64,000 bases of DNA from an archaeon (GCA_043819075.1 JBDRFE010000060.1:780-64779); one strand, 5' to 3'; shown: positions 2,384 to 59,090, counted from the stretch's first letter. The notes: a model not told the origin generated them from the sequence alone. Numbers and translations are program-made.

Positions 2384-3073
2384 TTATTTTTTTTCGCATA
2401 AGACAAGCAAATGTTCTTTCTGGAACGGCTCTAAAAAAACAGCTTGCTTTACAATGAATTCTTTTTCAAGTTTTTGTTTTTCTTCCATTAAAATCTGTTT
2501 AGAGTTTTTCTGTGAAATGCTTCTTGCCTTGATTGAAATCATTGCTTTTCTTCCTTTTTTTAAAAAAATTCTTGCATTGTTGAGGAAAATGTCTGTCTGG
2601 TTTTTTTGCGAGATATCCTGGAACAAAAAATCAAATTCAATTTCCTTTAATTCTTTTGAAGTTTCTTCAGTATTATTTGCGTCAACCAAATATGGAATTA
2701 AGTTTTTTCTTTCCTCGCTTAATTCAACTAATTTATTCATTACTCTTGCACTGATATCAATTCCAATAATCAATCCTTTTTCCCCTATTATATCAGAGAT
2801 ATGCGAAATAGTTGTTCCTTCTGCTGCGCCAAGATAAAGGATTTTCATTTCTTTTTTTATCGGAGAAGGAACCCCTTTTTTTATTCCTGCGCCAAGCTTT
2901 GATCTAAACGGATTCCATTCCCTTAACTCTTTTCCTTTAAATGAAATCAGTTTTTCTCCGTAAACTTTTTTTCCTTTTACCGCGTTTTCAGTGAAAATTT
3001 TTCTTCCATCAGAGTAAATTCCGTCAAATACCTGGTTTAAGTTCATGCAATCAGTTCCTGTTAAGTTCTTCAA
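2384..3073 (-). CDS. flpA: fibrillarin rRNA/tRNA 2'-O-methyltransferase
   Basis: Fibrillarin SAM-MTase motifs (KILYLGAAEGTT); overlaps Nop5 gene as in archaeal operons. Confidence 0.9.
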   Translation of the reverse strand: MKNLTGTDCMNLNQVFDGIYSDGRKIFTENAVKGKKVYGEKLISFKGKELREWNPFRSKLGAGIKKGVPSPIKKEMKILYLGAAEGTTISHISDIIGEKGLIIGIDISARVMNKLVELSEERKNLIPYLVDANNTEETSKELKEIEFDFLFQDISQKNQTDIFLNNARIFLKKGRKAMISIKARSISQKNSKQILMEEKQKLEKEFIVKQAVFLEPFQKEHLLVLCEKK

Positions 3074-3860
3074 TTCTTTTATTTAATTCTGTTTTCATTT
3101 CATCTGTTTCTTTTGAATCTTTTTTTCCAAAAAAATCTTTTCTTGCTGTAATGCTTAGTTTTCCTGACAAAGTTCTTGCAAATTTTCCCTGATTGTTTCT
3201 CTTGACTTTTTTCAGCATTGGGTGCCCGAAAATAAAACCGTATTTTGGCGGTTTTGCACCTGATTTAATGTGATTAAATAATGCTTTTTCTGCTCCAAGC
3301 AATTGAATTGTAGAAGAAGGCATTAAAGCAAGTTTTTTTACCGAGCCTGCTTTGGCTAGCATTCTTGCCCCAATTAATGGTTCAGCTAATTCAGTGAAGT
3401 TTGGCAGAATGATTTTCATTTCTTTTTCAATGAATTTAGTTAACTCGTTTCTTTGTTTTTTTAATTCAATTCCTTTTAATGCCAAAGACTTTATCTGGCT
3501 TAAAGTTTCTTCTTCTAATTCAGAGCCCATTGAAGTCTTTGCTTTTTCGGCTATTTCTTTTGCTTTTTCTTTGTTGTCGTATGCTTCTAAAATATTTTTT
3601 TCAGAAAAATTTTTCCTGTTTCCCAGCAAAACCAGCTGCAAAAAAATTTCGTTGTCTTCTACTATTGAATTGAGTTCAGGGAAATGCATTCCAAACCATT
3701 CTCTGGTGTTCTCTGAAATCAGGTTAGCCATTTTATCCAGTTCATCTATTAATAAAACGGCTTTGATTATGTGAACGTCTTTTCCTGTAAAAGCTTTTGA
3801 AACCCTTTCTTTTGTTTTTCTTGTAAGCCTTTGCTTTAAGCTTTCATTTATTTCAGCCAT
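3051..3860 (-). CDS. nop5: Nop5 (Nop56/58) box C/D RNP protein, short form without N-terminal domain
   Basis: Coiled-coil plus Nop domain (GARMLAKAGSVKKLALMPSSTIQLLGAEKALF); only 269 aa. Confidence 0.8.
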   Translation of the reverse strand: MAEINESLKQRLTRKTKERVSKAFTGKDVHIIKAVLLIDELDKMANLISENTREWFGMHFPELNSIVEDNEIFLQLVLLGNRKNFSEKNILEAYDNKEKAKEIAEKAKTSMGSELEEETLSQIKSLALKGIELKKQRNELTKFIEKEMKIILPNFTELAEPLIGARMLAKAGSVKKLALMPSSTIQLLGAEKALFNHIKSGAKPPKYGFIFGHPMLKKVKRNNQGKFARTLSGKLSITARKDFFGKKDSKETDEMKTELNKRIEELNRN

Positions 3861-3915: not shown

Positions 3916-5412
3916 ATGGCTTTAAAGAAATCAGAGGTTTTAATGGATTTGGCTTTAAGGAGAAGCATTTTTTTTCCTTCAGCCGAAATTTACGGCGACT
4001 CATTCAGCGGTTTCTGGGATTACGGGTTTTATGGCACAGCAATTAAAAACAAAATCATTGAAGCCTGGAGAAAAGACTTGGTTGAAAAAGAAGGTTTTAT
4101 TGAATTAGACGGCGCACAAATTCTGCCTGAAAAAGTTTTTCTTGCTTCAGGGCACTTAAACAATTTCAACGACCCTTTAATCCAATGCGAGAAATGCCAT
4201 TCACTTCACCGCGCTGACTCTTTGCTTGGAAAAGAATTTGAGTTAACTGAGGGAACACCAACTGAAAGATTTGATGAATTAATTTCACAACACAAAATCA
4301 AGTGCCCTTCCTGTAAAGGAAATTTAGGCAAAACAAAAAAATTTAATTTAATGATGGGCTTGGATATTGGTGCAACAGGCAAACTAAAAGGCTTTTTAAG
4401 GCCTGAAACCTGCCAGAACATTTTTTTGAATTTTTCTAGGATTTATAAGACTATGCGAAAAAACCTTGCATTCGGCATTGCACAGACAGGAAAATGCTTT
4501 AGAAATGAAATTGCTCCAAGAAACTCTATTTTAAGAATCAGAGAAATAAGCCAGATGGAAATAGAAGTATTTTTTAATCCGGACAAAATTAATGAAGTAG
4601 AAAACTTTTCTTTGATAGAGGATTTTCCTGTAAGAGTTTTGCTTGACAAAAAAAAGTCAGTTGAAGAAATCAAGGCAAAAGATTTGGTTGTAAAAAAAAT
4701 TGTTTCCGGAAAGCTTGCAGCCTATTATCTTTCCAGAGTCCAGCAGTTTTTTGAGGGATTAGGCATTCCAAGAGAAAAATTAAGGTTTAGGGAAGTAAGC
4801 CAAGAAGAAAGAGCGTTTTATGCTTTAGAGGGCTGGGATTTTGAGGTTGAAACTTCTCTTGGATGGATTGAGTTAGTGGCAAACAATTATCGTTCAGACT
4901 ATGACTTAAAAAATCATTCACTTACTTCTGGAGCAAACCTGAAAGTAAAAGAAGAAGACAAAGAATTTTTTCCTCATGTCTGGGAAATTTCTGCCGGGGT
5001 TGACCGAACATTGTTTGTTTTGCTTGAATTAGCTTTAAGAGAAGAAACAAAGAAAGGCGAAAACAGATTGTTTTTGTCTCTTTCTCCTAAGATTGCGCCT
5101 TTTACTGCCGGAGTGTTTCCTTTGGTTAACAAAGACGGATTAGATGTAAAAGCTAAACAGATTTTTGATGACTTGTTAGAGCATAAGATTGCTGTTTTTT
5201 TTGATTCAAAGGGTTCTATTGGCAAAAGGTATGCCAGGATTGACGAGATTGGTGTTTCTTTTGCTTTGACAATTGACTTTGATTCTTTGAAAGATGATTC
5301 TGTTACTATCAGGGAAAGGGATTCAACTGAACAGAAAAGAATTGCAGTTAAATCTCTTCCTGAAACCCTTTGGAAGCTTTCCACAGGCAAAACGACGTTC
5401 ACGCAGATTTAA
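3916..5412 (+). CDS. glyS: glycyl-tRNA synthetase (archaeal/eukaryal type)
   Basis: Class II GlyRS N-terminus (YGDSFSGFWDYGFYG) and overall length. Confidence 0.85.
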   Translation: MALKKSEVLMDLALRRSIFFPSAEIYGDSFSGFWDYGFYGTAIKNKIIEAWRKDLVEKEGFIELDGAQILPEKVFLASGHLNNFNDPLIQCEKCHSLHRADSLLGKEFELTEGTPTERFDELISQHKIKCPSCKGNLGKTKKFNLMMGLDIGATGKLKGFLRPETCQNIFLNFSRIYKTMRKNLAFGIAQTGKCFRNEIAPRNSILRIREISQMEIEVFFNPDKINEVENFSLIEDFPVRVLLDKKKSVEEIKAKDLVVKKIVSGKLAAYYLSRVQQFFEGLGIPREKLRFREVSQEERAFYALEGWDFEVETSLGWIELVANNYRSDYDLKNHSLTSGANLKVKEEDKEFFPHVWEISAGVDRTLFVLLELALREETKKGENRLFLSLSPKIAPFTAGVFPLVNKDGLDVKAKQIFDDLLEHKIAVFFDSKGSIGKRYARIDEIGVSFALTIDFDSLKDDSVTIRERDSTEQKRIAVKSLPETLWKLSTGKTTFTQI

Positions 5413-5493
5413 TTATTTCCTTGCACTATTTTTTTACATCACTATTGAGCAAAGCGAAATAGTGCACTGGTGTAAACTGACAGCGGCAGTTTT

Positions 5494-5569
5494 GCCGCCG
5501 TAGCATAGCTTGGTTTTATGCAGCGGTTTCGTAAACCGCAGATCGTGGGTTCAAATCCCATCGGCGGCT
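5494..5569 (+). tRNA. tRNA-Thr (anticodon CGT)
   Basis: Cloverleaf folds by hand: acceptor GCCGCCG/CGGCGGC, anticodon stem GCGGT/ACCGC, loop TTCGTAA, T-arm GTGGG-TTCAAAT-CCCAT. Confidence 0.8.
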
Positions 5570-5634: not shown

Positions 5635-6657
5635 ATGCGTTATAATCGAATCGGGTTTTTTTCTGCAGAAGACAGGACCTTGTTTTTTGAAATTGGGAAA
5701 CAAGTGCTCTACTGTGATTCTTGGAAACAATTCTGTGCGAAAGTAGGTATTCAAAAATCGATGGCTGAATACTATCGTAATGGTAAACTTTTATTGCCGG
5801 AATGGCTATTTCTTAATTTGTCAGAAAAATTTTCTTCCGAAAAAAGAGCTTTTTTTAAATCAAAAATTTTTTTGAAACCGCCCAATTGGGGTGAGAGTAT
5901 TGGCGGTAGAAAAACATCAGCCTCCCATCCAGAATTTATTGTAGCTGCGCGTGCGTCTGCAAGGGAAAAGTTTTCGCGTCTTCCAAGGAACTGTTTTGAT
6001 TTAAATCAAGAACTGTCTTGTGAGTTGTGTGAATTTGTTGGCGCTTTTATGGGGGATGGCCACACAGGTTTATATGGCAGCCATACAATAGTCGGGTTTA
6101 CTGGGCATGCCAAACTTGATGATGATTATTATTATAGAACCATTATTCCAGCAGTAAAGAAATTGTTCCACATTGAAACTTGTTATGTCTGGAAAAAAGA
6201 AAACATAATGCGTGTTACTTTTCATTCAAAAAGACTCGTTGAATTGTTGATTAAACGATTTGGTTTTCCTACTGGAGTCAAATTTGATAAGATTCTGATT
6301 CCGGAAGAAATTTTGCATTCTTCAAACGAACACATTGCGGCAGTATTGCGCGGACTTTTTGATACTGATGGATGCGTTTTCTTTGATAAGAGAAAAATCT
6401 ACCGTAATCCCTATATGAGATTTAATCTGACAATGTATAATCCCCAAATTCTGGATCAGGTAGTTCAGGCACTTGCCAAAATAGGTATTCATGCTTCCAG
6501 AGCTAATTCCAAAAGAAGCATTCAAATCACCAACAGCCAGAATATTGAAGGTTTTCTCAGGTCTGTTGGGTTTTCAAACACAAGGCACATAAGCAAAGTT
6601 CTGCAGGCATATCCTGACTTTAACTCTTTTAACCCCGGAACAAGATTGACTTCGTAA
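5635..6657 (+). CDS. free-standing LAGLIDADG homing endonuclease with N-terminal HTH
   Basis: Two LAGLIDADG motifs (FVGAFMGDGHT and LRGLFDTDGCV); not embedded in an intein or rRNA. Confidence 0.75.
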   Translation: MRYNRIGFFSAEDRTLFFEIGKQVLYCDSWKQFCAKVGIQKSMAEYYRNGKLLLPEWLFLNLSEKFSSEKRAFFKSKIFLKPPNWGESIGGRKTSASHPEFIVAARASAREKFSRLPRNCFDLNQELSCELCEFVGAFMGDGHTGLYGSHTIVGFTGHAKLDDDYYYRTIIPAVKKLFHIETCYVWKKENIMRVTFHSKRLVELLIKRFGFPTGVKFDKILIPEEILHSSNEHIAAVLRGLFDTDGCVFFDKRKIYRNPYMRFNLTMYNPQILDQVVQALAKIGIHASRANSKRSIQITNSQNIEGFLRSVGFSNTRHISKVLQAYPDFNSFNPGTRLTS

Positions 6658-8226: not shown

Positions 8227-8370
8227 GTTTTTTTGATTAATTTTTTTTTGAGAAAGCTTGTGTTTGCGAAGCAAACCGTTTTTGATCAAACTTTTTCTGA
8301 AAAAGTTTGTGTGCGGAATAAGGAAAATCTGAGCATTGATTTTTTAAGTTTTGCCGGCTTTTATTTTTCT

Positions 8371-16621: not shown

Positions 16622-16673
16622 TTTTTCAATTCCTTTAAATTTTTTTCTTTGCAGGAATTAATGAAGTGATGCA

Positions 16674-20716: not shown

Positions 20717-20757
20717 TTCTAGTATTGTATTACTCTGCAACTATTGTACCAAAAAGC

Positions 20758-20765
20758 CTTTATAA
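20758..20765 (+). promoter_or_regulatory. TATA-like box (TTTATAAA) upstream of structured element copy A
   Basis: Consensus-like archaeal TATA about 30 nt ahead of the GGAGGAAA hairpin. Confidence 0.3.
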
Positions 20766-20861
20766 AGCCGGAAATACTATTACTTCAGTAAAAACATTTA
20801 ATCTTCCTTCACCCCGGAGGAAATTTCACCTCACGAAATTTTTCCTCCCTCCTTTTTTTTT

Positions 20862-20962
20862 CGCGATTTCAACCGCTCACTCGGTTGACGCGTGTGCAGA
20901 GCGTAAAGCTCTGCTAGCATGGCTTTATGCCGTGCCTCGTGCTCAAACGGCGAAACGTTTGA
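20862..20962 (+). ncRNA. GC-rich twin-hairpin structured element, copy A (stand-alone candidate sRNA)
   Basis: GCAGAGC-GTAAA-GCTCTGC TA GCATGGC-TTTAT-GCCGTGC, then CAAACG-GCGAAA-CGTTTG; oligo-T runs at 20969-20985. Confidence 0.45.
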
Positions 20963-21009
20963 AAAGCTGTTTTTTAAGTTTTTTGCTTTAACTTTAATTA
21001 GGTGATGCT

Positions 21010-25016: not shown

Positions 25017-25427
25017 TTACTCGCCGATTATTTTAACTAAAACCCTTTTTTTTCTTTGACCGTCAAATTCAGCGTAATAAATTTGTTCCCATGTTCCTAA
25101 ATCAAGTTTTCCGTTTGATACTGCAACAGTTGTTTCCCTTCCCATTATTGTTCGCATTAAATGAGCGTACGCATTATCTTCGCCTGTAAGGTTATGCCTG
25201 TAATCTTTGTCCGGCACTAATTTTTTCAGCCATTCCTTGTAGTCCTCTATTAAGCCTGTTTCAGCGTCATTAATGTACACAGAAGAAGTAATATGCATTG
25301 GATTCACTAAAACAATTCCTTCTTTTATTCTGCTTTTTTTTACAGCTTCTTCTACTTGTTGTGTGATGTTAATGAATTCAATCCTGTTTTTTGTATTAAA
25401 AAACAGGTATTCTGTAAATGTTTTCAT
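25017..25427 (-). CDS. YjbQ/UPF0047 family protein
   Basis: Family-like length and composition. Confidence 0.5.
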
Positions 25428-25431
25428 AAAA

Positions 25432-25503
25432 TGGGAAAGGGGAGAATCGGACTCCCGACCTTTCGATTATCAGTCGAACGCTCTGCCACTAAGCCACTCT
25501 CCC
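25432..25503 (-). tRNA. tRNA-Ile (anticodon GAT)
   Basis: Acceptor GGGAGAG/CTTTCCC (one G.U), anticodon stem TTCGA/TCGAA, loop CTGATAA, T-arm GGGAG-TCCGATT-CTCCC. Confidence 0.7.
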
Positions 25504-25759
25504 AACACCTTTTCCAAAAGGTGCAACTTAAACCAAAAAGGTTTAAGTGCACAACAAAATAAAAATTTTGTTGCTGTAACAAAATGCACGGCATTCGCTT
25601 TTTGCTCAGCCGGGCTGTAATGGCCAAAAAAACCAAAACAAGTAGTAATTATTTCTTTAAGTAAATAATTAAAGCTTTTGTGGAAGAATCCGTGAATCAC
25701 TTCTGTAAAACATTAAGATGTTTCGTTGCTAAAATAATTTAAATGCTGTGGTTAAGAAG

Positions 25760-25935
25760 AGGTTGTACTAGCACGGGTTTATCCCATGCACAGTCACATC
25801 CGAGCGAAATCGCGAATAGCCCAGAAGAGATCCCAACAACAGTTTCGGCTGTTGGGTACGAGGCACGACGTGAAGTCGTGCTAGCACAGCTTTATGCTGT
25901 GCACTGGTGTCAAGCTGACAGCGGCAGTTGTGAAA
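25760..25935. ncRNA. GC-rich twin-hairpin structured element, copy B (on the 3' flank of tRNA-Gln)
   Basis: GCACGGG-TTTAT-CCCATGC ... CAACAG-TTTCGG-CTGTTG ... GCACGAC-GTGAA-GTCGTGC TA GCACAGC-TTTAT-GCTGTGC, then the ACTGGTGTCAAGCTGACAGCGGCAG motif. Confidence 0.45.
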
Positions 25936-26008
25936 TAGCCCCGAGGAGATTCGAACTCCTGTCAACGGGTTCAAAGCCCGTCATCCTTGGCCACTAGACT
26001 ACGGGGCT
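25936..26008 (-). tRNA. tRNA-Gln (anticodon TTG)
   Basis: Acceptor AGCCCCG/CGGGGCT, anticodon stem ACGGG/CCCGT, loop CTTTGAA, T-arm AGGAG-TTCGAAT-CTCCT. Confidence 0.8.
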
Positions 26009-26364
26009 GACAAGGATATAACTAATAAAAAAAACAATTAAATATTAATGAGCTATTGAATAAAATGAAATAACTCGATATATTTGCACACCAACTGAGC
26101 GAGACGGTTGTTGAACAGCTGTTTTTAAGCTTTTTCTATTATCATCTTTTTTTTTGTTCATTTTTTTTGTTTTATTTTCTTTTTTTTGTGTTTTCCATTA
26201 AAAAAAACTGTTCGGAATACCAACTTTTTTTACTGAAACGGTTTGCTTATGAATGGCTCAAACTTTTTAAATAGAACAGGTGTTTGTATTAATGCCTTTT
26301 GTTAGTTAAAAAAAATGCCTTTTGTTAGCTAAAAAAAGACAAGGAATCGGTTAGGGGTGATTAA

Positions 26365-45476: not shown

Positions 45477-46178
45477 ATGAAGATTGCAAGCTTGTTTTCT
45501 GGCGGAAAGGATTCCTGTTATTCAGTGAACTGGGCGTTTGAAGAAAAACATGAAGTAAAAGTATTGATTTCACTTGTTTCAGAAAACCAGTTTAGTTTCA
45601 TGTTTCACACCCCGAACATTAAGTTAACTTCTTTTCAGGGAATTGCAGCAGAAATTCCTGTAATGCACAAAGAAACCGCTGGAGTGGCAGAAGAAGAGAT
45701 TGAAGACTTAAAGAATGCTTTAATTAAAGCCAAAGAAAATTTTGGCATTCAAGGCATTACTACTGGAGCATTAGCTTCTTCTTACCAAAAAAAAAGAATT
45801 GAATCAGTTTGCTCTGAGCTAGAGCTTGAATGCTTTTCTCCTTTATGGCAGAAAAACCAGTCAGATTATGTGAAAGAATTAATTGAAAAAAAATTTGAAG
45901 TAATAATTGCTGCTGTTGCAGCCAAAGGCTTGGACAAGAACTGGCTTGGCAGGAAATTAGACAAAAAAACTTTAAAGGATTTAATGCAATTGGATAAAAC
46001 TTTTGGCTTGAATGTTGCAGGAGAAGGCGGGGAATACGAAACTTTTGTCTTGAACGCGCCTTTCTTTAAGCAAAAGCTTCAGGTAACTTCTTCTGAAAAG
46101 CACTGGGATAAAACAACAGGATATCTTGAAATAAAAGAAATTCAATTGGTAAAAAATAAACTTTTTCCAAAAGTTTAA
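45477..46178 (+). CDS. dph6: diphthine-ammonia ligase (MJ0570-family PP-loop ATPase)
   Basis: SGGKDS PP-loop and EGGEYETFVLNAPFF. Confidence 0.7.
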   Translation: MKIASLFSGGKDSCYSVNWAFEEKHEVKVLISLVSENQFSFMFHTPNIKLTSFQGIAAEIPVMHKETAGVAEEEIEDLKNALIKAKENFGIQGITTGALASSYQKKRIESVCSELELECFSPLWQKNQSDYVKELIEKKFEVIIAAVAAKGLDKNWLGRKLDKKTLKDLMQLDKTFGLNVAGEGGEYETFVLNAPFFKQKLQVTSSEKHWDKTTGYLEIKEIQLVKNKLFPKV

Positions 46179-46200
46179 TCAAAAACAGTCCTTCGGACAA

Positions 46201-46845: not shown

Positions 46846-46924
46846 TTTTTCACCTTTTAATATATCTTTGGTGCAACTAATTTTTAATTGTTTTTTTTTG
46901 GTTGTATACAGGCTAATATTTATT

Positions 46925-47070
46925 CAGCTCGACTGAACGAAGTGAATAACCGCTTCCGTGCGGTTGTGACGGCGCACGGCGTGAAGCCGTGCTAGCGCAA
47001 CTTTATGTTGTGCACCGTTGCTCACGGACGGAACCGTGACGTGGCAGCCGAGCGAAATCGGCTAACTGCA
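46925..47070 (+). ncRNA. GC-rich twin-hairpin structured element, copy C (stand-alone, oligo-T at 47081-47093)
   Basis: TTCAG-CTCGA-CTGAA; GCACGGC-GTGAA-GCCGTGC TA GCGCAAC-TTTAT-GTTGTGC; CACGG-ACGGAA-CCGTG; GCCGA-GCGAAA-TCGGC. Confidence 0.5.
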
Positions 47071-48044
47071 GTTTGTTCCTCTGCTTTTTTCTGTTGTGAA
47101 ATCTTTTGTCCCTAACTCAAAATTTTTTTGCTGAAAAACTTTTTTCCAAGCCTGCTTGCATTCAAATGCATATAAGCAATCAGAACAATAATGCCTTATA
47201 GTGCATTCAGTTATTGTTGTAGGAGAAACTGTTGTGTCATCAATAATTATTTCTTTTTTTGTGCTGTCAATCCTGCAGTCGTAAGCAGGCGTGCCTAAAA
47301 CATTTACTGTGAATTCCTGTTCAATGAAACCAAAATCCAGTCCAGTAATTTTTGCTTTAACAAAGTATTCTCCGGGAGAATCAAATTCAATTTCTGTTTC
47401 AAGTGTTTTTGTTTCTTTTGGTTCAATTCTTGTCCTTGTGCTAACAGCTTTTTTTATTTGCTCTTGTTTTATTGTTCCGTTGTCGTTGAATGCAATTGCT
47501 GCAACAGCTTCAATTACTGCAAAGCTTTCAGTTGTATTCCCTTTGTTGGTTACTTCAGCTGAAATTCTTAGTTTATCTGAATCAAAATAAAAGTTGTTGT
47601 TGTAGTTTAACCCATCTGATTGCACTTGCGCCGGAACACCTCCAACGTAAATGTCGCAGAAATAGGTTCCTTTCACGTTCTCGCATCTGGTGCTTGTTAT
47701 TGGATTAATTGTTTTGTTGAATTTAATGAAATCTTTTGTCCATTCACTTCTTGAATCGCATTTCTCGTTTTCTGCACAGCAAAATTCATATGAATTGCAT
47801 TCAAATTCTATTACAGTATTATTTGATTCAAAATCCTGTTTTGACAGTGAAATTCCTTTTTCAAGCTTTAAATCGTATTCAGAGTTATAAATTCCTAAAT
47901 TTTTTTTTTTGAGAGCTCTATTTGCCCGTTTAATTTTTCTACAATGCCTTGTTTGGGGAATGCAGCGGGAAAAAAAATGTTTGAAATAAAAAAAAACAAA
48001 TACAATAGTACAATAAAGCTTACAACTATTTTGAATGGATTCAT
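47062..48044 (-). pseudogene. secreted Cys-rich protein gene split by an A11 tract (signal-peptide ORF 47900-48044 plus body 47062-47900)
   Basis: ATG at 48044 encodes a hydrophobic signal peptide and stops just after T11 (plus 47900-47910); the body frame runs from the tract with no ATG; A12 would fuse them. Confidence 0.45.
47900..47910. repeat. T11/A11 homopolymer at frameshift site
   Basis: Counted directly. Confidence 0.8.
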
Positions 48045-48333: not shown

Positions 48334-50187
48334 TTACTGCGTGTTTTCTTCTGTTTTTTTCCCCTGCAGTTCAAACATTCTGGTTATTTCTTTTTCTGTT
48401 GTTGCTTCTTCCGGTTTTTTGTCTGAACGCATTGAAATCATTCTCGGAAACCTTAAAGCCAGCCCTTTTCCGTCTTTAAACCCTGCCAAGTGAATCGGGC
48501 TTCTAGTTATTTCGTCTGCCCTGATTTCAATTACATATTTTGGTTCAGTCCAGTAATCTGGTTCAAGAGATGATTCAACTCTTGCAGGCTTTTTTTTTGA
48601 AGAAATTTTTTTAAGGATTTTTTCTAACTCGCTTAAATTTTTTTCTGTCAAGCCTGTCCCGATTTTTGCAATGCTTTTAAAGCAGTCATCTTTTTCAGAG
48701 TAAATTCCTGTTAATAGCGCGCCTAACCCGAATTCAGTTCTTTTTCCTTTTCCTTTATAGTAACCTATTATTACTCCGTCAATTGAGTCATTTAATTCCA
48801 TTTTATAGCTTCTTTTTAATTTAATCCAGGCAAACTTTCTTGCTCCTGCAATGTATTTTGCGTTCAAGTCTTTTGCAATAATCCCTTCTAATCCTTTTGA
48901 AATGCTGTCATCAAAGAATTCATCCAGTTTTTTGCTTGAATCTGTTTCAATGCTTTTGGTTAATTCAATTATTTTTCCTTTGCCAATCATTTCCTTTAAT
49001 TTTTTTCTTCTTTCAGTTAAAGGCTTTTCCATTAAATTTTCTTCTTCTAAAAGCATTATATCAAACACAAAAAGTTTTAACGGGAATTCTTTTGTTTTTT
49101 CGTTTATTCCGTATTTTCTTTTTCTCTGGATTGTCAGCTGGAATGAAAGGAATTCTTCTGTTAATTCATTGAATGCAATTGCTTCGCCTTCAAAAATCGT
49201 TTTCTCTGCTTTAACCTGTTCTTTTATTGCTTTCACTATATCAGGAAACATTTCACTCATGTTCTCTGACTGCCTTGAATAAATCCATACATTGTTTTTG
49301 TTTTTATGGCACTGTAATCTGAAGCCGTCATATTTTGCTTCTACAATGCATTTTCCCAGTTTTTCTATTATTTCTTGAGAAGAATTAAGCCTTTCAGCTA
49401 AAGTCGGCCTGATAGGAATTCCTGCTTCAATTTTAATTTCTTTTAATCCATTTAATCCTTTTTCTTTGAGTATTTCAGCTATTGCCCCTAAATCAGAATA
49501 AATATTATATTTTTCCTCTATTTTCTGCCTTAACCTTAATTTAATTCTTCTTTCAAGTTCTTCTTTCCGGTTTTTTTCTTTTATTTTTTTTTCATTCATT
49601 TCAGCTTCAATTTTTTGCATTAATTTTTTGTCCTGCATTCCTTCTTCCAGAAAGTTTGCTGCAAGCGCATCCATTATTGTGGGGTCTCCTATGCCTAACC
49701 TTAAGTTTTCTAACGGAATTCTTGCAATAAATTTTGCTTCTTTTCCTGTAGCGGAATTAAATAGTTCTGCCATTAATTTTAGTTTTGATTCTTTTGAGCC
49801 GGTTCCCTCTGTTTTTGAAATCTTTATTAAGTTGTCAAAAACTTTTTCTACAGTTAATTCGCTTGAAAACAATGCTGACTGTTTTTTTTGTTCAGCAAAT
49901 TCTTCTGCCACCAACCCTAAATCCCCTTTTTCCCTGAACTTTTTTTCTATTTCTTTTTTTGTAAAGCCAGTTGTTTTTGCAATGGCTTCAATCACCATTT
50001 TTTCTCCTAATCCTGACTCAATTTTTTCGTAATTAGCGCCTAACCTGCCCTGGCATAAGAAAACAATTTTTTTGATGTCTTTTTTGCCTGCTTTCTCAAA
50101 TAATTCTGCTAAAACTGAAGTCATTTCCAGCCTTGAAGAAATGCCTTCAATTCTGTCAAAATATGAGCTTAATTCCCTGAAATTCAT
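48334..50187 (-). CDS. lig: ATP-dependent DNA ligase
   Basis: KYDGFR adenylation motif; start at MNFRELSSYFD (50187) as in archaeal ligases. Confidence 0.85.
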   Translation of the reverse strand: MNFRELSSYFDRIEGISSRLEMTSVLAELFEKAGKKDIKKIVFLCQGRLGANYEKIESGLGEKMVIEAIAKTTGFTKKEIEKKFREKGDLGLVAEEFAEQKKQSALFSSELTVEKVFDNLIKISKTEGTGSKESKLKLMAELFNSATGKEAKFIARIPLENLRLGIGDPTIMDALAANFLEEGMQDKKLMQKIEAEMNEKKIKEKNRKEELERRIKLRLRQKIEEKYNIYSDLGAIAEILKEKGLNGLKEIKIEAGIPIRPTLAERLNSSQEIIEKLGKCIVEAKYDGFRLQCHKNKNNVWIYSRQSENMSEMFPDIVKAIKEQVKAEKTIFEGEAIAFNELTEEFLSFQLTIQRKRKYGINEKTKEFPLKLFVFDIMLLEEENLMEKPLTERRKKLKEMIGKGKIIELTKSIETDSSKKLDEFFDDSISKGLEGIIAKDLNAKYIAGARKFAWIKLKRSYKMELNDSIDGVIIGYYKGKGKRTEFGLGALLTGIYSEKDDCFKSIAKIGTGLTEKNLSELEKILKKISSKKKPARVESSLEPDYWTEPKYVIEIRADEITRSPIHLAGFKDGKGLALRFPRMISMRSDKKPEEATTEKEITRMFELQGKKTEENTQ

Positions 50188-50258
50188 TATAGAATTAGTC
50201 TTCTGAAATTTAAATGCTTTTAGTTTAAAAACATTATTTAACCATTTTATTATGTTTT

Positions 50259-50459
50259 GGGACCGTGGTGTAGCCTGGTCTAGCATTGCGGCTTTGGGCC
50301 ACAACTGTTTCGTCAGTTGAGTGCGATGCACGACTTTCGCGGTTTAGCCCGCGAGAGACTATGCACTACTTTCAGTAGAGCTAGCTTGCTTCGCTTTATT
50401 CTGATAAAATAATTGATGCAAATAAGCCGTTGACCCCGGTTCAAATCCGGGCGGTCTCA
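50259..50459 (+). tRNA. tRNA-Pro (anticodon TGG) with 126-nt intron after position 37 (50299..50424)
   Basis: Exon 1 GGGACCG..GCGGC-TTTGGG; exon 2 A-GCCGT-TGAC-CCCGG-TTCAAAT-CCGGG-CGGTCTC-A; acceptor and anticodon stems pair across the intron. Confidence 0.7.
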
Positions 50460-50668
50460 TAACATTTTTCTTAAATTAATCTCGCATTTGCTTTCTTCTT
50501 CTCTGCCTTCTTTCGTCACTTGTTTTTGTATTCTGTTTTTCTTGTTTCAAGAACTTTTTTTGTTTTAATGCTTTGTTTGCAGTCCTTTCCTTTGATTCTT
50601 TTGAACGCGAAAACATTCCTGAATTCATGTTATACTATTGTTTTATGATATTAATTAGCTTTTGTTTT

Positions 50669-54173: not shown

Positions 54174-55637
54174 TTAATACGATTTTGCGATATAAACGAT
54201 TTTTTCTGCTTTTTTTCCGCAGGCAATGCAGTTTCCTTTTGGATTTTCTTTTTCTCCAAGCCTTGTCCCTCTAATGCTTGCATTCAATTCTTTTTCAATT
54301 TTTTCTGCGCAAGAATAGCCTTCCATTGACACTGAACAGAACCCTGTTTTGATTATTTTGCCTTTCTCTAATTCTTTTTTTGCTTTTTCAATTGAGTCAG
54401 CTGAAACAATTGCTTCACTGAACTCTTTTTCAGCTTTTAACTGAAGTTCTTTCAGCTGTTTTTCGCCTTCTTTTAAAATCAAAGAGCTTATTCTTGCAAG
54501 GTTTTCTTTTGTTTTTTTTCCTGAATGCCTTGCAAAAACTGTTGCTTTTTTTTCAGTTAACTCTTTTTCCCCTAATTCAATGCGGAATGGAACTCCTTTC
54601 ATTTCCCAGAAATAAAATTTTTCTCCGATTGTTTTGTCAGTTAAATCAGCTTCAGCCCTTAATTTTTTTTCAGTTAATTCTTTTCTTATTTTTTCTGTTT
54701 CTTTTAATATTTTTTCCTTGTTTTTGTCGTTATAAATCGGCACAATCACTGCTTGCAACGGTGCCGCAGTGAATGGAAGCACTAATCCTTTGTTGTCGCC
54801 GTGAACTGAAATCATTGCGGCAAAAATCCTGCTTACTGCCGGGCCATAGCATGTTGTCCAGCAGTAATTTTCTTTTCCTTTTTCGTCAGTGAATTTTACA
54901 TTAAATGCTTTTGTAAAATTTTGCGATATAACATGAGTTGAAGGCAGCTGCAGTATTTTTCCGTCTGGCATTAAAGTGTCTGCTGCAAAAGTTGATTCTG
55001 CTCCCGGAAACTTGTCCCATTGCGGTCTCTCAAAAAAAATAAACGGAATCCCTAATTTTTCCAGCAGCACTTCTTTTGTTGTCTGCATGTCTTCTTCTGC
55101 CTGCAAAAAAGCGTTTTCTCTTGAATCAAATGCATTATGTGTTTCAATCCAGTAAAATTCCCTGCTTCTGATGAAAGGCTTTGTTGCTTTTGTTTCATGC
55201 CTGAAAACCTGTGCTCTTTGATATGTTTTGAATGGAAGGTCTTTGTATGACCTAATCCATAAAGAAAACATCTGGTAGAAAGCTGTTTCTGATGTCGGCC
55301 TTAAAGCAAGTTTTTCCTCTAATTTTTCTCCTGCACCAGTTTCTGTTACCCAAAACACTTCTGGTGCAAAGCCTTTTACATGCTCTTTTTCCATTAAAAA
55401 ATTTTTTTCCGGGATTACAACAGGATACCAGTATGGTTTGTGGCCTTTTAATTGAAGTGTTTCTTCAAAAAAGTCATACATTTTTTCCATTGCAATAACA
55501 GACCATGGCTGGAAAATCAGAAAGCCTTTTACATTATATCTTAAGTCCCCTAATTCAGCTTTTTTTACTATTTCAGAGTACCATTCAGAGAAATTGTTTT
55601 TTTTGTCAAAGTCAAATGTGACTTTTTCTTTTGCCAT
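54174..55637 (-). CDS. proS: prolyl-tRNA synthetase (archaeal/eukaryal type)
   Basis: Class II ProRS core with C-terminal zinc-binding extension; about 487 aa. Confidence 0.85.
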   Translation of the reverse strand: MAKEKVTFDFDKKNNFSEWYSEIVKKAELGDLRYNVKGFLIFQPWSVIAMEKMYDFFEETLQLKGHKPYWYPVVIPEKNFLMEKEHVKGFAPEVFWVTETGAGEKLEEKLALRPTSETAFYQMFSLWIRSYKDLPFKTYQRAQVFRHETKATKPFIRSREFYWIETHNAFDSRENAFLQAEEDMQTTKEVLLEKLGIPFIFFERPQWDKFPGAESTFAADTLMPDGKILQLPSTHVISQNFTKAFNVKFTDEKGKENYCWTTCYGPAVSRIFAAMISVHGDNKGLVLPFTAAPLQAVIVPIYNDKNKEKILKETEKIRKELTEKKLRAEADLTDKTIGEKFYFWEMKGVPFRIELGEKELTEKKATVFARHSGKKTKENLARISSLILKEGEKQLKELQLKAEKEFSEAIVSADSIEKAKKELEKGKIIKTGFCSVSMEGYSCAEKIEKELNASIRGTRLGEKENPKGNCIACGKKAEKIVYIAKSY

Positions 55638-56045: not shown

Positions 56046-56140
56046 TTTAATCAATAAAAATACTGAACCAGAATTAATAAGGCTTTCTTTAAACTGCCGT
56101 TCGCCGATTCTGCTCGGTGGCAATGAGGTACAACACAAGG

Positions 56141-56283
56141 TCTTGTTAGCACGGTTTTATGCCGCAACCGTCACGCTCGGTTGGTGTGCGCGCACGGGAT
56201 AAACCCGTGCTAGCGCAACTTTATGTTGCGCACCGTTACACTCGCACGGAAGCGAGTCGGTGCTCGCGGGCGAAACCGCGAAA
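56141..56283. ncRNA. GC-rich twin-hairpin structured element, copy D (abuts the tRNA-Pro(GGG) 3' end)
   Basis: ACGGTT-TTATGCCGC-AACCGT; GCACGGG-ATAAA-CCCGTGC TA GCGCAAC-TTTAT-GTTGCGC; CTCGC-ACGGAA-GCGAG; CGCGG-GCGAAA-CCGCG. Confidence 0.5.
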
Positions 56284-56357
56284 TGGGACCGCCGAGATTT
56301 GAACTCGAGTTACAAGCTCCCCGAGCTTGAGTGATAACCAGACTACACTACGGCCCC
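56284..56357 (-). tRNA. tRNA-Pro (anticodon GGG)
   Basis: Acceptor GGGGCCG/CGGTCCC (one G.U), anticodon stem CAAGC/GCTTG, loop TCGGGGA, T-arm TCGAG-TTCAAAT-CTCGG. Confidence 0.75.
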
Positions 56358-56363
56358 TTAATC

Positions 56364-57479
56364 TTAAATTAATTTAAAGTAGAATTCCTCTAATTTTAAT
56401 GCCCGTTTTTCCCTTGAATTCTCTTCAGCTTTTTTAACTGCATTAACTGAAAGCCTGTTATACAATGTTTTGTCTGAAAAAAGTTTTTTTATTTTTTCTG
56501 CTGCTTCTCTGGCATTAAACGGTTCAAACAAGAAACCATTAACCTCCTCTTTTATTGTTTCTGGTATAGCCATTTTGTTTGCTCCAATGCAGGGCATTCC
56601 TGTCGCCATTGCCTCTGCAATTGTCAATCCTTGTGTTTCCATTGTTGCTGCAGTTATAAAAACATTTGATTCAGCGACTTTTTCAGCTAATTCTTTTCCT
56701 TTTAATGCTCCTGTAAAAAAAACCCTTTTTTCAAGGTTTTTTTCTTTTGCTTTTTCCTTTAATTTTTCTAATGCAGGGCCTGAGCCGATTATTGAAAGCA
56801 AAGCAGTTTCTTCAAGCAGTTCCAGTGTGTCAATCAGCACTTCAATGTTTTTTTCAAATGAAATTCTTCCGAAGTAAACCAGTTTTTTTTGTTTTAAGTC
56901 TTTATTGCATTTCACTGAATTAAATAATTTAAAGTTTATTCCGTTTGGCAAAACTTTCACGTTTTTTATTCCGTTTTCTTCTAATTCTTTTTTTATTTTT
57001 TCTGTTGGCGTGGTAGTTAAATCACATTTGTTGTAAAACAGTTTTGAATAAAACCAGACTCCTTTTTTTGCTATCTGTGATTCTTTTAGGAAGGGAATTG
57101 GCAGGTACATCATGAAGTCAGGCAGGTAAGTGTGGTATGTCCCGATTTTTTTTTTCTTTAATTTTTTTGCTAAATTTAATCCAATCCAGCCCACTGAAAA
57201 AGGCGTGTGGCAGTGAATTATATCTGGATTGAATTCTTTTAGTTTTTTTTCTGCTTCAAGTGAAATAATTGAACTAATCCTGTATTCTTTGTATGTTGGC
57301 AGTGAAATGCTTGGAATCCAGAAAACATCAAATTTTGTTTTTACTTCTTCCCTTGTTTTTGGCGCAAAAACCATTATTTTGTGGCCTTTTTTTTCTAATT
57401 CTTCTGCAAAATTGTCTATGGAAATGACTACTCCGTTTATCTGCGGCCAGTAACTGTCAGAAAAAAAAGCTATTCTCAT
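56364..57479 (-). CDS. GT4-family glycosyltransferase
   Basis: GT-B fold with RIAFFSDSYWPQINGV N-terminus. Confidence 0.75.
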   Translation of the reverse strand: MRIAFFSDSYWPQINGVVISIDNFAEELEKKGHKIMVFAPKTREEVKTKFDVFWIPSISLPTYKEYRISSIISLEAEKKLKEFNPDIIHCHTPFSVGWIGLNLAKKLKKKKIGTYHTYLPDFMMYLPIPFLKESQIAKKGVWFYSKLFYNKCDLTTTPTEKIKKELEENGIKNVKVLPNGINFKLFNSVKCNKDLKQKKLVYFGRISFEKNIEVLIDTLELLEETALLSIIGSGPALEKLKEKAKEKNLEKRVFFTGALKGKELAEKVAESNVFITAATMETQGLTIAEAMATGMPCIGANKMAIPETIKEEVNGFLFEPFNAREAAEKIKKLFSDKTLYNRLSVNAVKKAEENSREKRALKLEEFYFKLI

Positions 57480-57522
57480 GTTATCAGATAAATTGTTCTT
57501 GGTTTAAGTTCTTTAATTCTTT

Positions 57523-58227
57523 CTATCGAATGTTTTCGTATTTTCTGCTTGCCTTGTTGAAGAAATAAAAGTTTACTGCGTTCTTTAAGTGAAAGAAAAT
57601 AAAATAAAAGTAGCCCCATGCCTTTACTCTTCTTGCTGAAACCTCTACAATGCTTTTTTTGTTGTATTTTATTTTGCCAATTTTTTTAAGGTGCCTGAAT
57701 AAATCCAGGTCTTCGCAGGTTACATAGCTTGAATCAAAGCCGTTTATTTTCCTGAAGGATTCTTTTCTTACTGCAATGTTTGAGCCAATCGGGTTATGCA
57801 TTCCGATTGCGGCCATTAAACTCATGAACAACGGCATTACTGTGCTGCTAATTTTTTTCTCTGATGAGCTTACATCAGAAAAAAACACGCTTCCGTACTG
57901 GCCTATTACTTCTGGGTTTTTTTCAAAAAAATTAACGTTTTCCTGCACCCAGTTTTCTGCTACAATTGCATCAGCGTCTGTGAATAAAAAGTATTTTCCT
58001 TCAGCAATTTTTGCTCCTGCGTTTCTTTCAGCTGCAATTCTTCTTATTTTTTCTTTTATTGTTTTTGCTCCAAGGCTTTTTGCTATTTCAACTGTTTTGT
58101 CTTCACTGTTTCCGTCTGCTACAATTACTTCAAAGCTTCCTGAAAACTTTTGTTTTTGGATTGATTTAACGCAGTCGCCAATCCTTTTCTCTTCGTTTAA
58201 AGTGCAGACGATTACTGAGATATCCAT
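57523..58227 (-). CDS. GT2-family glycosyltransferase (dolichyl-phosphate glycosyltransferase-like)
   Basis: ISVIVCTLNEE...DADAIV motifs. Confidence 0.75.
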   Translation of the reverse strand: MDISVIVCTLNEEKRIGDCVKSIQKQKFSGSFEVIVADGNSEDKTVEIAKSLGAKTIKEKIRRIAAERNAGAKIAEGKYFLFTDADAIVAENWVQENVNFFEKNPEVIGQYGSVFFSDVSSSEKKISSTVMPLFMSLMAAIGMHNPIGSNIAVRKESFRKINGFDSSYVTCEDLDLFRHLKKIGKIKYNKKSIVEVSARRVKAWGYFYFIFFHLKNAVNFYFFNKASRKYENIR

Positions 58228-58334
58228 GAATAACCGATAAAAGAAAGCTTTTGAAAAATAAAAGGTTTTTGGAGGGAATACAGTTTCTGGCGGTTAAACC
58301 AACAAATTTTAATTAGTTTAACATAATTTATTAT

Positions 58335-58826
58335 TTGATGAATAAAGAGCAGTTTGTCGAAGGAAAGCTTGAAGGATGTGAAAAAGAATTTTGTTCACAA
58401 TCCTGTTGTGATGACGATAAAGTTGAAGAATGGACAAACGAGTATTTTGCTTTTCATGAAAGAATGAAAGAGCATTTGCTTTCTGCTGGAATTAAAATTC
58501 ATTTTGCCGGAGACAGAGTAAGATTCACTAATTGTTCTGATGGCAGGGAATGCAAGTTTTTAAAGTATTCTTTAAACAAAGATATTGATCCAAGGCCAAT
58601 TGACTGCAAAATATTTCCTTTTACAGTTGACTGGGAATCAATTGATTTTAATAAAAAAATAGCAAAACTGGATTATTGGGACAAAAGCTGCCCTTTAGTG
58701 AAAAGCAACAACATTCCAAAAGAGTTCCTGAAAGAAGTTGAAGGCATAATAAAAAGAGATTTTGCAGTTCTGTTTTATGGGGCAAGATTTGAAGTTAAGT
58801 TTCCTGCAGACTTAAACAAAAAATAA
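58335..58826 (+). CDS. Cys-rich hypothetical protein
   Basis: C-x4-C-x3-CC plus further Cys residues. Confidence 0.3.
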   Translation: MMNKEQFVEGKLEGCEKEFCSQSCCDDDKVEEWTNEYFAFHERMKEHLLSAGIKIHFAGDRVRFTNCSDGRECKFLKYSLNKDIDPRPIDCKIFPFTVDWESIDFNKKIAKLDYWDKSCPLVKSNNIPKEFLKEVEGIIKRDFAVLFYGARFEVKFPADLNKK

Positions 58827-58840
58827 AAGAAATAAAACTT

Positions 58841-58962
58841 TTTCAGCTCGGCTGAGCAGAGCGAATGCCAAACCAGTTTCGGCTGGTTGCAGCGACGCAC
58901 AGCTTTTAGCTGTGCTAGCACGACCTTGTGTCGTGCGTTTGATACAACTTTGGAAAGTTGTT
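58841..58962. ncRNA. GC-rich twin-hairpin structured element, copy E (abuts the tRNA-Trp 3' end; hairpin order swapped)
   Basis: TCAGC-TCG-GCTGA; CCAG-TTTCGG-CTGG; GCACAGC-TTTTA-GCTGTGC TA GCACGAC-CTTGT-GTCGTGC; CAACTTT-GGA-AAGTTG. Confidence 0.45.
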
Positions 58963-59090
58963 TGGGGACACTGGGAGTCGAACCCAGATTTCATGGTTGC
59001 TGCCTTTTTTAGAAAATTTTGTTTTTGATAAAACTTTTTTCTAAAAAGTTTTGTCTGGAGCCAAGCGGGATGCCATTACCCCATGTCCCC
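58963..59090 (-). tRNA. tRNA-Trp (anticodon CCA) with ~55-nt AT-rich intron in the anticodon loop
   Basis: Exon 1 GGGGACA..CTTGG-CTCCAG; exon 2 A-CCATG-AAAT-CTGGG-TTCGACT-CCCAG-TGTCCCC-A; one U.U mismatch in the anticodon stem. Confidence 0.6.

Follow-up and report, generated by a model that had tools for sequence, protein, structure and literature searches.

Modular palindromic hairpin cassettes at tRNA flanks, in tRNA introns and at gene ends of an AT-rich DPANN archaeal genome

Introduction

What are the hairpin blocks that directly follow three tRNA genes in an archaeal genome? The genes, tRNA-Gln, tRNA-Pro(GGG) and an intron-containing tRNA that is probably tRNA-Trp, lie on the minus strand of a 64,000 nt stretch of DNA (GCA_043819075.1 JBDRFE010000060.1:780-64779; hereafter the window, whose positions are counted from its first letter). 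An earlier note on this DNA had proposed that the blocks are tRNA-trailer structures acting as processing or termination signals, or else small RNAs (sRNAs) transcribed convergently and overlapping the tRNA 3′ ends. Here we describe the blocks as members of a single palindromic hairpin repeat family that fills tRNA flanks, tRNA introns and gene ends, an identity that is well supported. With a probability of roughly 0.5, they are copies of a lineage-specific, modular and dyad-symmetric family of GC-rich hairpins in an AT-rich DPANN genome, which are transcribed as tRNA trailers and removed by tRNA processing.

Results

Three GC-rich cassettes abut tRNA 3′ ends

Sequence, folding and a covariance model all confirmed that each of the three tRNAs has a hairpin block on its 3′ side. 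The blocks, which we call cassettes E25, E56 and E58, are embedded in a window of 34% GC, and cassettes have a GC content of 52–58%. The tRNA genes and the parts of the cassettes are as follows; cassettes and their parts are listed without a strand.

25936–26008, minus strand: tRNA-Gln(UUG) (ARAGORN; Rfam, 67 bits)
25765–25935: cassette E25, 3′ trailer of tRNA-Gln (sequence; covariance model)
25771–25789: E25, solo core-type hairpin (model, 24 bits)
25832–25856: E25, outer hairpin CCCAACAACAG-TTTCGG-CTGTTGGG (sequence)
25863–25902: E25, double-hairpin core (model, 62.6 bits on the plus and 61.5 on the minus strand)
25903–25935: E25, ACTGGTG and a hairpin with the loop ACAGCGG (sequence)
56284–56357, minus strand: tRNA-Pro(GGG) (ARAGORN and Rfam)
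56130–56283: cassette E56, 3′ trailer of tRNA-Pro(GGG) (sequence; model, 64.4 and 62.4 bits on the two strands)
56130–56165: E56, degenerate core (sequence)
56165–56183: E56, outer hairpin CAACCG-TCACGCT-CGGTTG (sequence)
56192–56231: E56, core (sequence; model)
56240–56257: E56, hairpin ACTCGC-ACGGAA-GCGAGT (sequence)
56264–56281: E56, hairpin TCGCGG-GCGAAA-CCGCGA, 2-nt spacer to the tRNA (sequence)
58963–59090, minus strand: intron-containing tRNA, most likely Trp(CCA) (Rfam tRNA, 47.4 bits; fold and inspection)
59023–59052, minus strand: AT-type module AAAACUUUUU-AGA-AAAAAGUUUU-AUCAAAAAC at the start of the Trp tRNA intron
58844–58962: cassette E58, 3′ trailer of the Trp tRNA (sequence; model, 53.5 and 52.6 bits on the two strands)
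58844–58869: E58, terminal hairpin with tandem G-A pairs, M6 (sequence)
58871–58888: E58, outer hairpin AACCAG-TTTCGG-CTGGTT (sequence)
58897–58936: E58, core (sequence; model)
58944–58961: E58, AT-type hairpin, 1-nt spacer to the tRNA (sequence)

The short spacing reported before was also borne out: about 1–3 nt separate tRNA and cassette (2–6 nt for E25, whose last hairpin ends at ~25933, depending on the weak foot pairs counted). On its far side, E58 begins 17 nt past the stop codon of a convergent open reading frame (ORF), 58335–58826 on the plus strand. The window contains five true double-hairpin cores, against 0–1 in 20 shuffles that preserve local GC content, and five sites with at most one mismatch to the core palindrome GTGCTAGCAC, against 0.54 expected. 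A covariance model of the core recovered five full copies at 52–64 bits and three degenerate ones, and the folding z-scores of the blocks are −2.7 to −6 on either strand. Close relatives occur in related loci outside the window (labelled L and a number). E25 is 88–89% identical over ~90 nt to the cassettes in L011 and L006, and the first hairpin of E56, which reads UCGCGG-UUUCGC-CCGCGA in the tRNA sense, has a near-identical counterpart at the beginning of the tRNA-Pro trailer in L014. Besides this common family membership, the first reading had missed two free-standing copies, a copy in a tRNA intron, and modules in the leaders of tRNA-Thr and tRNA-Ile.

The tRNA at 58963–59090 has an AT-rich intron of ~57 nt. 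ARAGORN in intron mode called it Gly(CCC) i(35,57), with the intron in a non-canonical position. Judged from the sequence by inspection, Trp(CCA) is more likely: the loop CUCCAGA is contiguous, the intron lies at the canonical position 37/38, and the discriminator is A73. The prolyl-tRNA synthetase gene (54174–55637, minus strand) lies ~650 nt from tRNA-Pro(GGG), with a 154-aa ORF and E56 in between. A mechanical ORF call of 84 aa (25743–25997, plus strand) lies wholly over E25 and is almost certainly spurious.

The cassettes are assembled from covarying palindromic modules

The core of the cassette is a double hairpin, GCRC-N3-loop-N3′-GYGC / UA / GCRC-N3-loop-N3′-GYGC, with 7-bp stems and 5-nt loops, and its centre GUGC-UA-GCAC is the perfect palindrome named above. 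One of the two loops is nearly always AUAAA or UUUAU, a regularity to be read with the caveat that the search motif demanded CTTTATG. We collected 37 unique double-hairpin cores, which were gathered through a pairing filter. In the alignment of the 35 non-identical cores, 98.6% of the cells are paired, and both-sided changes occur at 10 of 14 pairs (90 cells). These values were reached by 0 of 500 shuffles, and slid controls pair at just 13–44%. The search motif had left two loop-adjacent stem positions of the right-hand hairpin free; these positions are paired in family matches and unpaired in chance matches.

The core stems comprise 507 Watson-Crick pairs, 4 G-U (0.8%), 3 A-C (0.6%) and 4 other combinations. 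In the tRNA stems of the same loci, G-U accounts for 58 of 612 pairs (9.5%; Fisher test against the core stems, p = 3.6e-12). We attempted to assign a strand in two ways. The covariance model gave near-equal scores both ways, with differences of 1–6 bits. The balance of G-U and A-C involves numbers too small to decide: relative to the tRNA sense a hand tally gave ~4 versus ~4 and hence no preference, and the strand with the U-rich loop has a weak excess of G-U (~15 versus 5). To judge by their sequences, the cassettes look like DNA-type palindromes rather than one-strand RNA helices. Because this design folds equally from either strand, it argues against a strand-specific sRNA gene.

The core is joined to outer parts, each consisting of a linker and an outer hairpin. 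On the left, the outer loops are UUUCGG (UUUCGN), UUCCGU, UCACGCY, CUCACU and CCRCUGU, and those on the right are the reverse complements. The optional terminal hairpin M6 has conserved tandem G-A pairs; as terminal modules, the M6 copies lie in inverted orientation to one another. A cassette is thus an inverted pair of half-units, sometimes differing in type, with mirror-imaged outer hairpins. An AT-rich sister module, AAACUUUUU-NNN-AAAAAGUUU-AUCAAAAAC, obeys the same placement rules as the GC modules. In the window it was identified by sequence at four sites, the last of which is the intron module listed above.

8280–8309, minus strand: AT-type module
46157–46184, plus strand: AT-type module
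58937–58961, minus strand: AT-type module
59023–59052, minus strand: AT-type module

The AT-type module also occurs in L002, L009, L026, L028 and L041, and it carries T-runs on both strands. Its sites are behind protein genes (46157–46184), directly behind tRNAs, in mirrored form (UUUUGAU-hairpin) ahead of tRNAs, and, in a number of tRNA introns, at the 5′ end.

Several higher-order structures were considered and rejected. A closing helix ACGAG/CUCGU, which would create a multi-way junction, was seen only with half-units of the same type and is a by-product of the inverted arrangement. Kissing between the loops UUUCGG/CCGAAA or AUAAA/UUUAU was dismissed, as left and right loop types combine freely without covariation. 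Leader and trailer of doubly flanked tRNAs share their module types without being complementary, so that pairing between them was discarded. A box C/D sRNA or K-turn reading of M6 failed on inspection, since the tandem G-A pairs are symmetric and lack the 3-nt bulge; box C is absent from both strands of all window elements, and CUGA occurs in M6 only.

The family occupies leaders, trailers, introns and gene ends

Every tRNA of the window (6 of 6) has at least one module, and the modules sum to 979 nt, or 1.5% of the window. In addition to the three trailer cassettes, we identified the following copies.

46920–47069, no strand: free-standing cassette E46 with M6, an outer hairpin, a core (46974–47013) and two outer hairpins (sequence; model)
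20870–20961, no strand: free-standing cassette E20 with CAACCG-CTCACT-CGGTTG, a core (20896–20935) and CAAACG-GCGAAA-CGTTTG (sequence; model)
50258–50460, plus strand: tRNA-Pro(UGG) with a canonical 37/38 intron of 126 nt at 50299–50424 (ARAGORN intron mode; fold)
25505–25617, minus strand: 5′ leader of tRNA-Ile (25431–25504) with M6 and then three AT-rich hairpins in the tRNA sense (sequence; fold)
5440–5493, plus strand: 5′ leader of tRNA-Thr(CGU) (5494–5569) (sequence)
26085–26116, no strand: degenerate half-unit GCACACC-AACTG..GACGGTTG, upstream of the tRNA-Gln promoter region (by eye only)

E46 overlaps the stop codon of an ORF at 47062–47676 on the minus strand and lies upstream of a transaldolase gene. 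E20 is placed within a T-rich run downstream of a class II aldolase gene; a mechanical ORF call of 88 aa (20725–20991, plus strand) lies wholly over it and is almost certainly spurious. The leader of tRNA-Thr consists of a hairpin CACTATT..AATAGTG, the linker ACTGGTG and the hairpin AAACTG-ACAGCGG-CAGTTT, which abuts the tRNA; this module is a mirror-orientation match of the tRNA-proximal end of E25. The AT-rich hairpins that the earlier note placed 5′ of tRNA-Ile are present at 25506–25523, 25526–25549 and 25552–25574, the final one stopping 1 nt short of the tRNA. Over 25510–25639 on the minus strand, Rfam reported a match to U4atac at 28 bits (threshold 53; E 0.01), which we dismissed as probably the tandem-GA hairpin plus stem-loops. 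The half-unit at 26085–26116 resembles the module CAACCG-TCACGCT-CGGTTG-GTGTGC in reverse.

The intron of tRNA-Pro(UGG) is composed of the modules AACUG-UUUCGU-CAGUU and UCGCGG-UUUAGC-CCGCGA and a degenerate core at 50363–50389 (model, 18.5 bits). This tRNA was overlooked by ARAGORN at default settings and at the Rfam gathering threshold and was recovered only in the ARAGORN intron mode. By inspection, its splice sites form a bulge-helix-bulge with a 4-bp helix UUUG/CAAA and the 3-nt bulges GG|C and UA|A. A DNA ligase ORF call (48334–50331, minus strand) overlaps tRNA-Pro(UGG), and therefore the true ligase start is probably further downstream.

For a comparison of leaders and trailers, each tRNA of the loci was written in its own sense. 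The foot of a hairpin lies 0–3 nt from the tRNA end in >20 independent tRNAs. In all 11 GC-type leaders the tRNA-proximal hairpin has a purine-type loop, which is GCGAAA, ACGAAA or GCGGAA in seven and ACAGCGG, ACAGAGG, GGCGCGA or AGUGAG in the other four; a frequent form is ...AUCGUGCUCAAACG-GCGAAA-CGUUUG|tRNA. In 10 of 10 GC-type trailers, the proximal loop is the reverse complement of the leader type (tRNA|UCGCGG-UUUCGC-CCGCGA...). This mirror rule is a consequence of the architecture, in which the cassette is dyad-symmetric and has an outer hairpin on each side; it shows no more than that tRNAs of both orientations border the ends of cassettes.

Cassettes also reside inside the canonical introns of tRNA-Asn (L005), tRNA-Thr (L010) and tRNA-Arg (L029). 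Among 18 free-standing copies that were classified, nine lie between tandem genes, eight between convergent genes and one between divergent genes, mostly right behind a stop codon. Some tRNAs have no module, for instance Thr-GGU and Met in L010 and L013. The common denominator of the occupied slots is probably RNA that is transcribed and then discarded.

No terminator separates the tRNAs from their cassettes

Archaeal RNA polymerase terminates at oligo-T. At all three flagged sites, the spacer between tRNA and cassette has no oligo-T, and the first run of at least five T residues (T5+) behind tRNAs with GC trailers is located 77–224 nt downstream, past the cassette. Among tRNAs without GC trailers, a T5+ run occurs 5–16 nt downstream in 9 of ~19. 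For the Trp tRNA the first T5+ is at 140 nt, and a T-rich run directly follows E58. For tRNA-Pro(GGG) it is at 224 nt, roughly 75 nt beyond E56. Behind tRNA-Gln there is no T5+ within 300 nt and none ahead of the tRNA-Ile leader; Gln, E25 and Ile may therefore form a single transcript.

With no terminator and a spacer of 1–3 nt, the tRNA transcript would run into the cassette, which suggests that the three flagged copies are transcribed as tRNA trailers. The trailer proposal of the earlier note thus retains the support of position, namely the short spacer and the lack of oligo-T within it, but the blocks are not specific to tRNA 3′ ends. GC modules were rejected as terminators: they have no T-runs and are also found inside introns.

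Orthologous sites differ in cassette content

The orthologous spacer in L005 is devoid of E20, and the T-rich run is unbroken there. The leader of tRNA-Glu is ~93% identical between L013 and L010 save for a precise block of 65 nt, comprising an outer hairpin and a core and flanked by TG. The L014 ortholog of tRNA-Pro(UGG) has an AT-rich intron of 78 nt and a GC trailer cassette, whereas in the window the intron carries GC modules and the trailer cassette is missing. The slot of E46 is filled by an AT-type hairpin in L026. The arrangement of tRNA genes varies as well: tRNA-Gln, 100% identical over 75 nt between the window and L031, is divergent from tRNA-Ile in L031 (962–1446) and co-oriented with it in the window (25431–26008), indicating an inversion in a cassette-packed region. 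The same freedom of tRNA orientation is seen at the ends of collinear cassettes when E58 is compared with the L013 leader. No consistent target-site duplication was seen; the lone clean indel is the TG-flanked block, and E20 lies inside a T-run. In L005, a tRNA-Asn with a cassette intron (4468–4635) is located between two genes whose window orthologs are adjacent, with a spacer of 52 nt (16622–16673) and no tRNA.

The family is apparently confined to related DPANN genomes

We searched one genome per species for 185,579 species with a 26-nt degenerate core motif. The motif was found in 15 places, 14 of them within five DPANN metagenome-assembled genomes (MAGs) and one a chance match in a bacterium of 61% GC. 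The five MAGs are Ca. Iainarchaeum, Ca. Diapherotrites, two unclassified archaea and one labelled Micrarchaeota. Metagenomes yielded 35 stretches, ~30 of them of the family type, and viral contigs yielded zero matches. The window is syntenic with contigs of two cassette-bearing MAGs at 78–82% nucleotide identity and is therefore assigned to this DPANN lineage ("Iainarchaeum"/Diapherotrites-related); its genes are of archaeal type (tRNA introns, glycyl-tRNA synthetase, prolyl-tRNA synthetase, DNA ligase). Rfam 15 at the gathering threshold reported only tRNAs in the window and 34 loci, and nothing credible at E ≤ 10 over the three tRNA-adjacent element regions. A full-text literature search found no published description of these hairpin elements. 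The family is apparently undescribed and confined to related DPANN MAGs and metagenome contigs.

Two further arrangements were noted in these loci. A hairpin super-array of ~380 nt follows tRNA-Val(GAC) in L002 (657–1040), with module types including GUGCUAUCUAAAGAUAGCAC and GUGCUACUUUCAGUAGCAC; it recurs in L048 and in part in L018, L032 and L050. Apparent tRNA 3′ halves, consisting of T-arm and acceptor, lie right before cassettes in L038 (~3060–3145) and L018 (~4990–5020) with no tRNA call by ARAGORN or Rfam, and they may represent split genes or tRNAs whose introns are non-canonical.

Genes neighbouring the other tRNAs

The UPF0047 gene (25017–25427, minus strand) starts 4 nt past the 3′ end of tRNA-Ile, and the same arrangement is found in L031. 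This suggests a tRNA-mRNA co-transcript, in which an RNase Z cut would yield a nearly leaderless mRNA. The glycyl-tRNA synthetase gene (3916–5412, plus strand) is located 81 nt upstream of tRNA-Thr(CGU). A free-standing LAGLIDADG_3 protein of 340 aa (5635–6657, plus strand) is encoded 65 nt beyond the 3′ side of tRNA-Thr. Its matches are to the homing-endonuclease portion of models for intein-containing RFC, helicase and GyrA, and it may be a free-standing intein-derived homing endonuclease.

Discussion

In the reading we favour, the cassette behind a tRNA would be read through as a long structured trailer, which RNase Z would remove along with the rest of the trailer by the standard pathway. 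RNase P would remove the leader copies, and the splicing endonuclease the intron copies. As the same hairpins would form from either strand, the cassette could resemble the repetitive extragenic palindromic (REP) elements and bacterial interspersed mosaic elements (BIMEs), turning over at the DNA level and serving as an orientation-independent barrier at RNA ends or in processing. We infer both the removal by tRNA-processing enzymes and a barrier or stabilizing role; the function may lie in an orientation-independent RNA-end barrier, in processing punctuation, in a site for some factor, or in nothing at all. Folding from either strand would suit elements that are transcribed convergently, as 8 of the 18 free-standing copies could be, or elements that invert.

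A number of observations weigh against this reading. The loops and linkers stay conserved between genomes with only ~78–82% identity in coding DNA, and the stems vary with compensation; to judge by sequence, a structured RNA or a protein-binding site under selection shows this pattern. The tandem G-A pairs of M6 and the UNCG-like loops stabilize one strand only, and this hints at a strand-specific RNA role beyond the symmetric model. Copies within a genome (82–98% identity over 35–73 nt) are no closer to each other than copies from different genomes, which gives no hint that the family spread by replication recently. No transposase, recombinase or integrase was found near the window copies, where Pfam and NCBIfam scans of the adjoining genes gave housekeeping genes only. 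Co-transcription and processing are suggested only by the spacing and by the absence of T-runs, and E20 follows a T9 run in the gene sense, so that its transcription may be doubtful.

Might the cassettes then be purely selfish mobile palindromic DNA, akin to miniature inverted-repeat transposable elements or REPINs, without host function and surviving only at sites where insertion is harmless owing to tRNA processing or to terminator regions? Such an origin would account for presence and absence at orthologous sites (the TG-flanked 65-nt block; E20 in its T-run), for the differing module content of one slot across related genomes, for the depletion of divergent promoter regions, and for the DNA-palindrome behaviour of the stems, in which G-U and A-C are similarly rare; organelles provide precedents in repetitive hairpin-forming elements (RHE; PMC2800124) and GC clusters (PMC4478555). 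We nevertheless hold it unlikely. Clear terminal inverted repeats or target-site duplications were not seen, copies are not more alike within than between genomes, and tblastn over ~380 kb of sampled sequence found no match to a Y1 (RAYT-like) transposase, in a weak test with IS608 TnpA and E. coli RAYT sequences as queries. Unlike decaying junk, 98% of stem pairs are intact despite the varied N3, and loops and linkers are kept across genera; together with the one-strand stabilizing motifs, this conservation of loops and linkers is not explained by a purely selfish model.

That the hairpins are dedicated signals for tRNA maturation or termination, guiding or timing RNase Z or RNase P from beside the acceptor stem or ending transcription, is suggested by the 0–3 nt distance of the foot in >20 independent tRNAs, by the modules at all six window tRNAs and by the T-run directly behind E58. 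We consider this improbable, since identical modules stand behind protein genes and inside introns, some tRNAs have none (for instance Thr-GGU and Met in L010 and L013), and presence differs among orthologous tRNAs. Moreover, leader and trailer modules are reverse complementary and would not present one signal to an RNA-binding enzyme, and GC-type modules are without oligo-T, which follows E58 but not E25. We likewise give little credence to a role as DNA-level sites, whether for binding of a dimeric protein, as hairpins of single-stranded DNA in replication, or in recombination, including inverted repeats that flip tRNA genes. The dyad symmetry around the perfect palindrome GTGCTAGCAC, the rarity of G-U at about the level of A-C, the near-equal scores of the strands, the inversion of tRNA-Gln relative to tRNA-Ile in L031 despite 100% identity, and the occurrence of tRNAs in either orientation at the end of collinear cassettes (E58 and the L013 leader) would all fit such sites. 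However, a 7-bp stem with a 5-nt loop is short for extrusion as a cruciform, covariation of N3 demands intrastrand pairing rather than duplex recognition, the distinct conserved loop and linker motifs are too many for a single binding protein, and placement in transcribed slots suggests a connection with RNA. Independent sRNA genes transcribed toward the tRNA 3′ end, the other proposal of the earlier note, are very unlikely. In trailers the tandem G-A strand of M6 is antisense to the tRNA and points at it, two transitions in L018 have produced two G-U pairs, both on the strand that is antisense to the adjacent tRNA, and an AT-rich TATA-like sequence lies ahead of M6. Nonetheless no family-specific promoter is evident: none recurs at a constant distance, and a genome of 34% GC is full of AT-rich strings. 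Leaders and introns carry the same modules in the tRNA sense, the strands score about equally, G-U is as rare in the stems as A-C (~4 versus ~4 relative to the tRNA sense, by hand tally), and there are no box C/D features and no Rfam match.

Comparable palindrome families are known elsewhere. According to their sequences, the cassettes appear to be an analogue of organelle GC palindromes and of REP/BIME, and a member of neither. Yin, Heckman and RajBhandary (Cell 26:325), cited in PMC7272585 and PMC4478555, reportedly described in 1981 GC-rich PstI palindromes flanking tRNA genes in the mitochondrial DNA of Neurospora crassa, with a core that is said to be a double palindrome around a central TA, CCCTGCAG-TA-CTGCAGGG. 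Like the cassettes, these are GC-rich hairpin repeats of an AT-rich genome directly beside tRNA genes, where tRNAs punctuate longer transcripts, and the central-TA core, as reported, closely resembles the GUGC-UA-GCAC of the cassettes. In contrast to the organellar palindromes, the cassettes are on a cellular archaeal chromosome, unrelated in sequence, modular with multiple hairpins, also present in tRNA introns, and endowed with covarying stems and conserved loops.

REP, BIME and REPIN elements are short, GC-rich, imperfect palindromes of bacteria, extragenic and mostly 3′ or intercistronic, which form mosaic clusters in alternating orientation (PMC3116915, PMC3184786). The cassettes share with them dispersed GC-rich imperfect palindromes mainly downstream of genes, mosaics of inverted units, and RNA hairpins either way. 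Whereas REPs are bacterial and have a GTAG-type tetranucleotide recognized by RAYT, the foot and centre of the cassettes are CTAG; REPs are nearly identical within a genome, but cassette copies are diverged, and cassettes are strongly tied to tRNAs and tRNA introns.

Double-hairpin elements (DHE) of Allomyces were reportedly described by Paquin et al. in 2000. Together with the RHE of sponge mitochondria (PMC2800124) and the GC clusters of yeast mitochondria, they are similar to the cassettes in being GC-rich single or double hairpins of compact AT-rich genomes, found in intergenic regions and introns, with presence/absence polymorphism and with palindromic modules that are merged and shuffled. 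In the yeast GC42 clusters, substitutions are mostly in loops and stems are conserved (PMC4478555); in the cassettes, loops and linkers are kept and stems covary, a difference that also counts against the reading we favour. Organelle elements have target dinucleotides (AG), and none is clear for the cassettes.

The Archaea themselves offer partial parallels. The Thermoproteales have transposing tRNA intron families, and archaeal C/D box sRNAs are linked to tRNAs in the tRNA-Trp intron and in the tRNA-sRNA transcripts of Nanoarchaeum. Common to these and to the cassettes are sequences shared by introns of non-homologous tRNAs and structured RNAs that are co-transcribed and freed by tRNA processing, presumably so in the case of the cassettes. 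Unlike them, cassettes are without box C or guide features, are palindromic on both strands, and occur equally in leaders, trailers and behind protein genes.

A bolder and still tentative extension, which we put forward as unlikely, is that the cassettes are an archaeal counterpart of REP/BIME with a hairpin-loop-recognizing factor of their own, such as a nuclease, chaperone or recombinase, conserved in the DPANN lineage, and that the module set moves among the leaders and trailers of tRNAs, their introns and the 3′ ends of genes. If true, such a counterpart would give a route for tRNA introns to gain or exchange sequence and for tRNA genes to flip or relocate. For annotation, the cassettes make spurious ORFs and conceal intron-containing tRNAs from default finders; they could also mark transcription-unit boundaries in unculturable genomes. 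The modules common to introns and flanks bear on the origin and movement of archaeal tRNA introns. If our interpretation holds, an ultra-small archaeal lineage would mark nearly all of its tRNA genes, many tRNA introns and many gene ends by one hairpin grammar, and the phenomenon of REP/BIME and mitochondrial GC palindromes would reach the Archaea.

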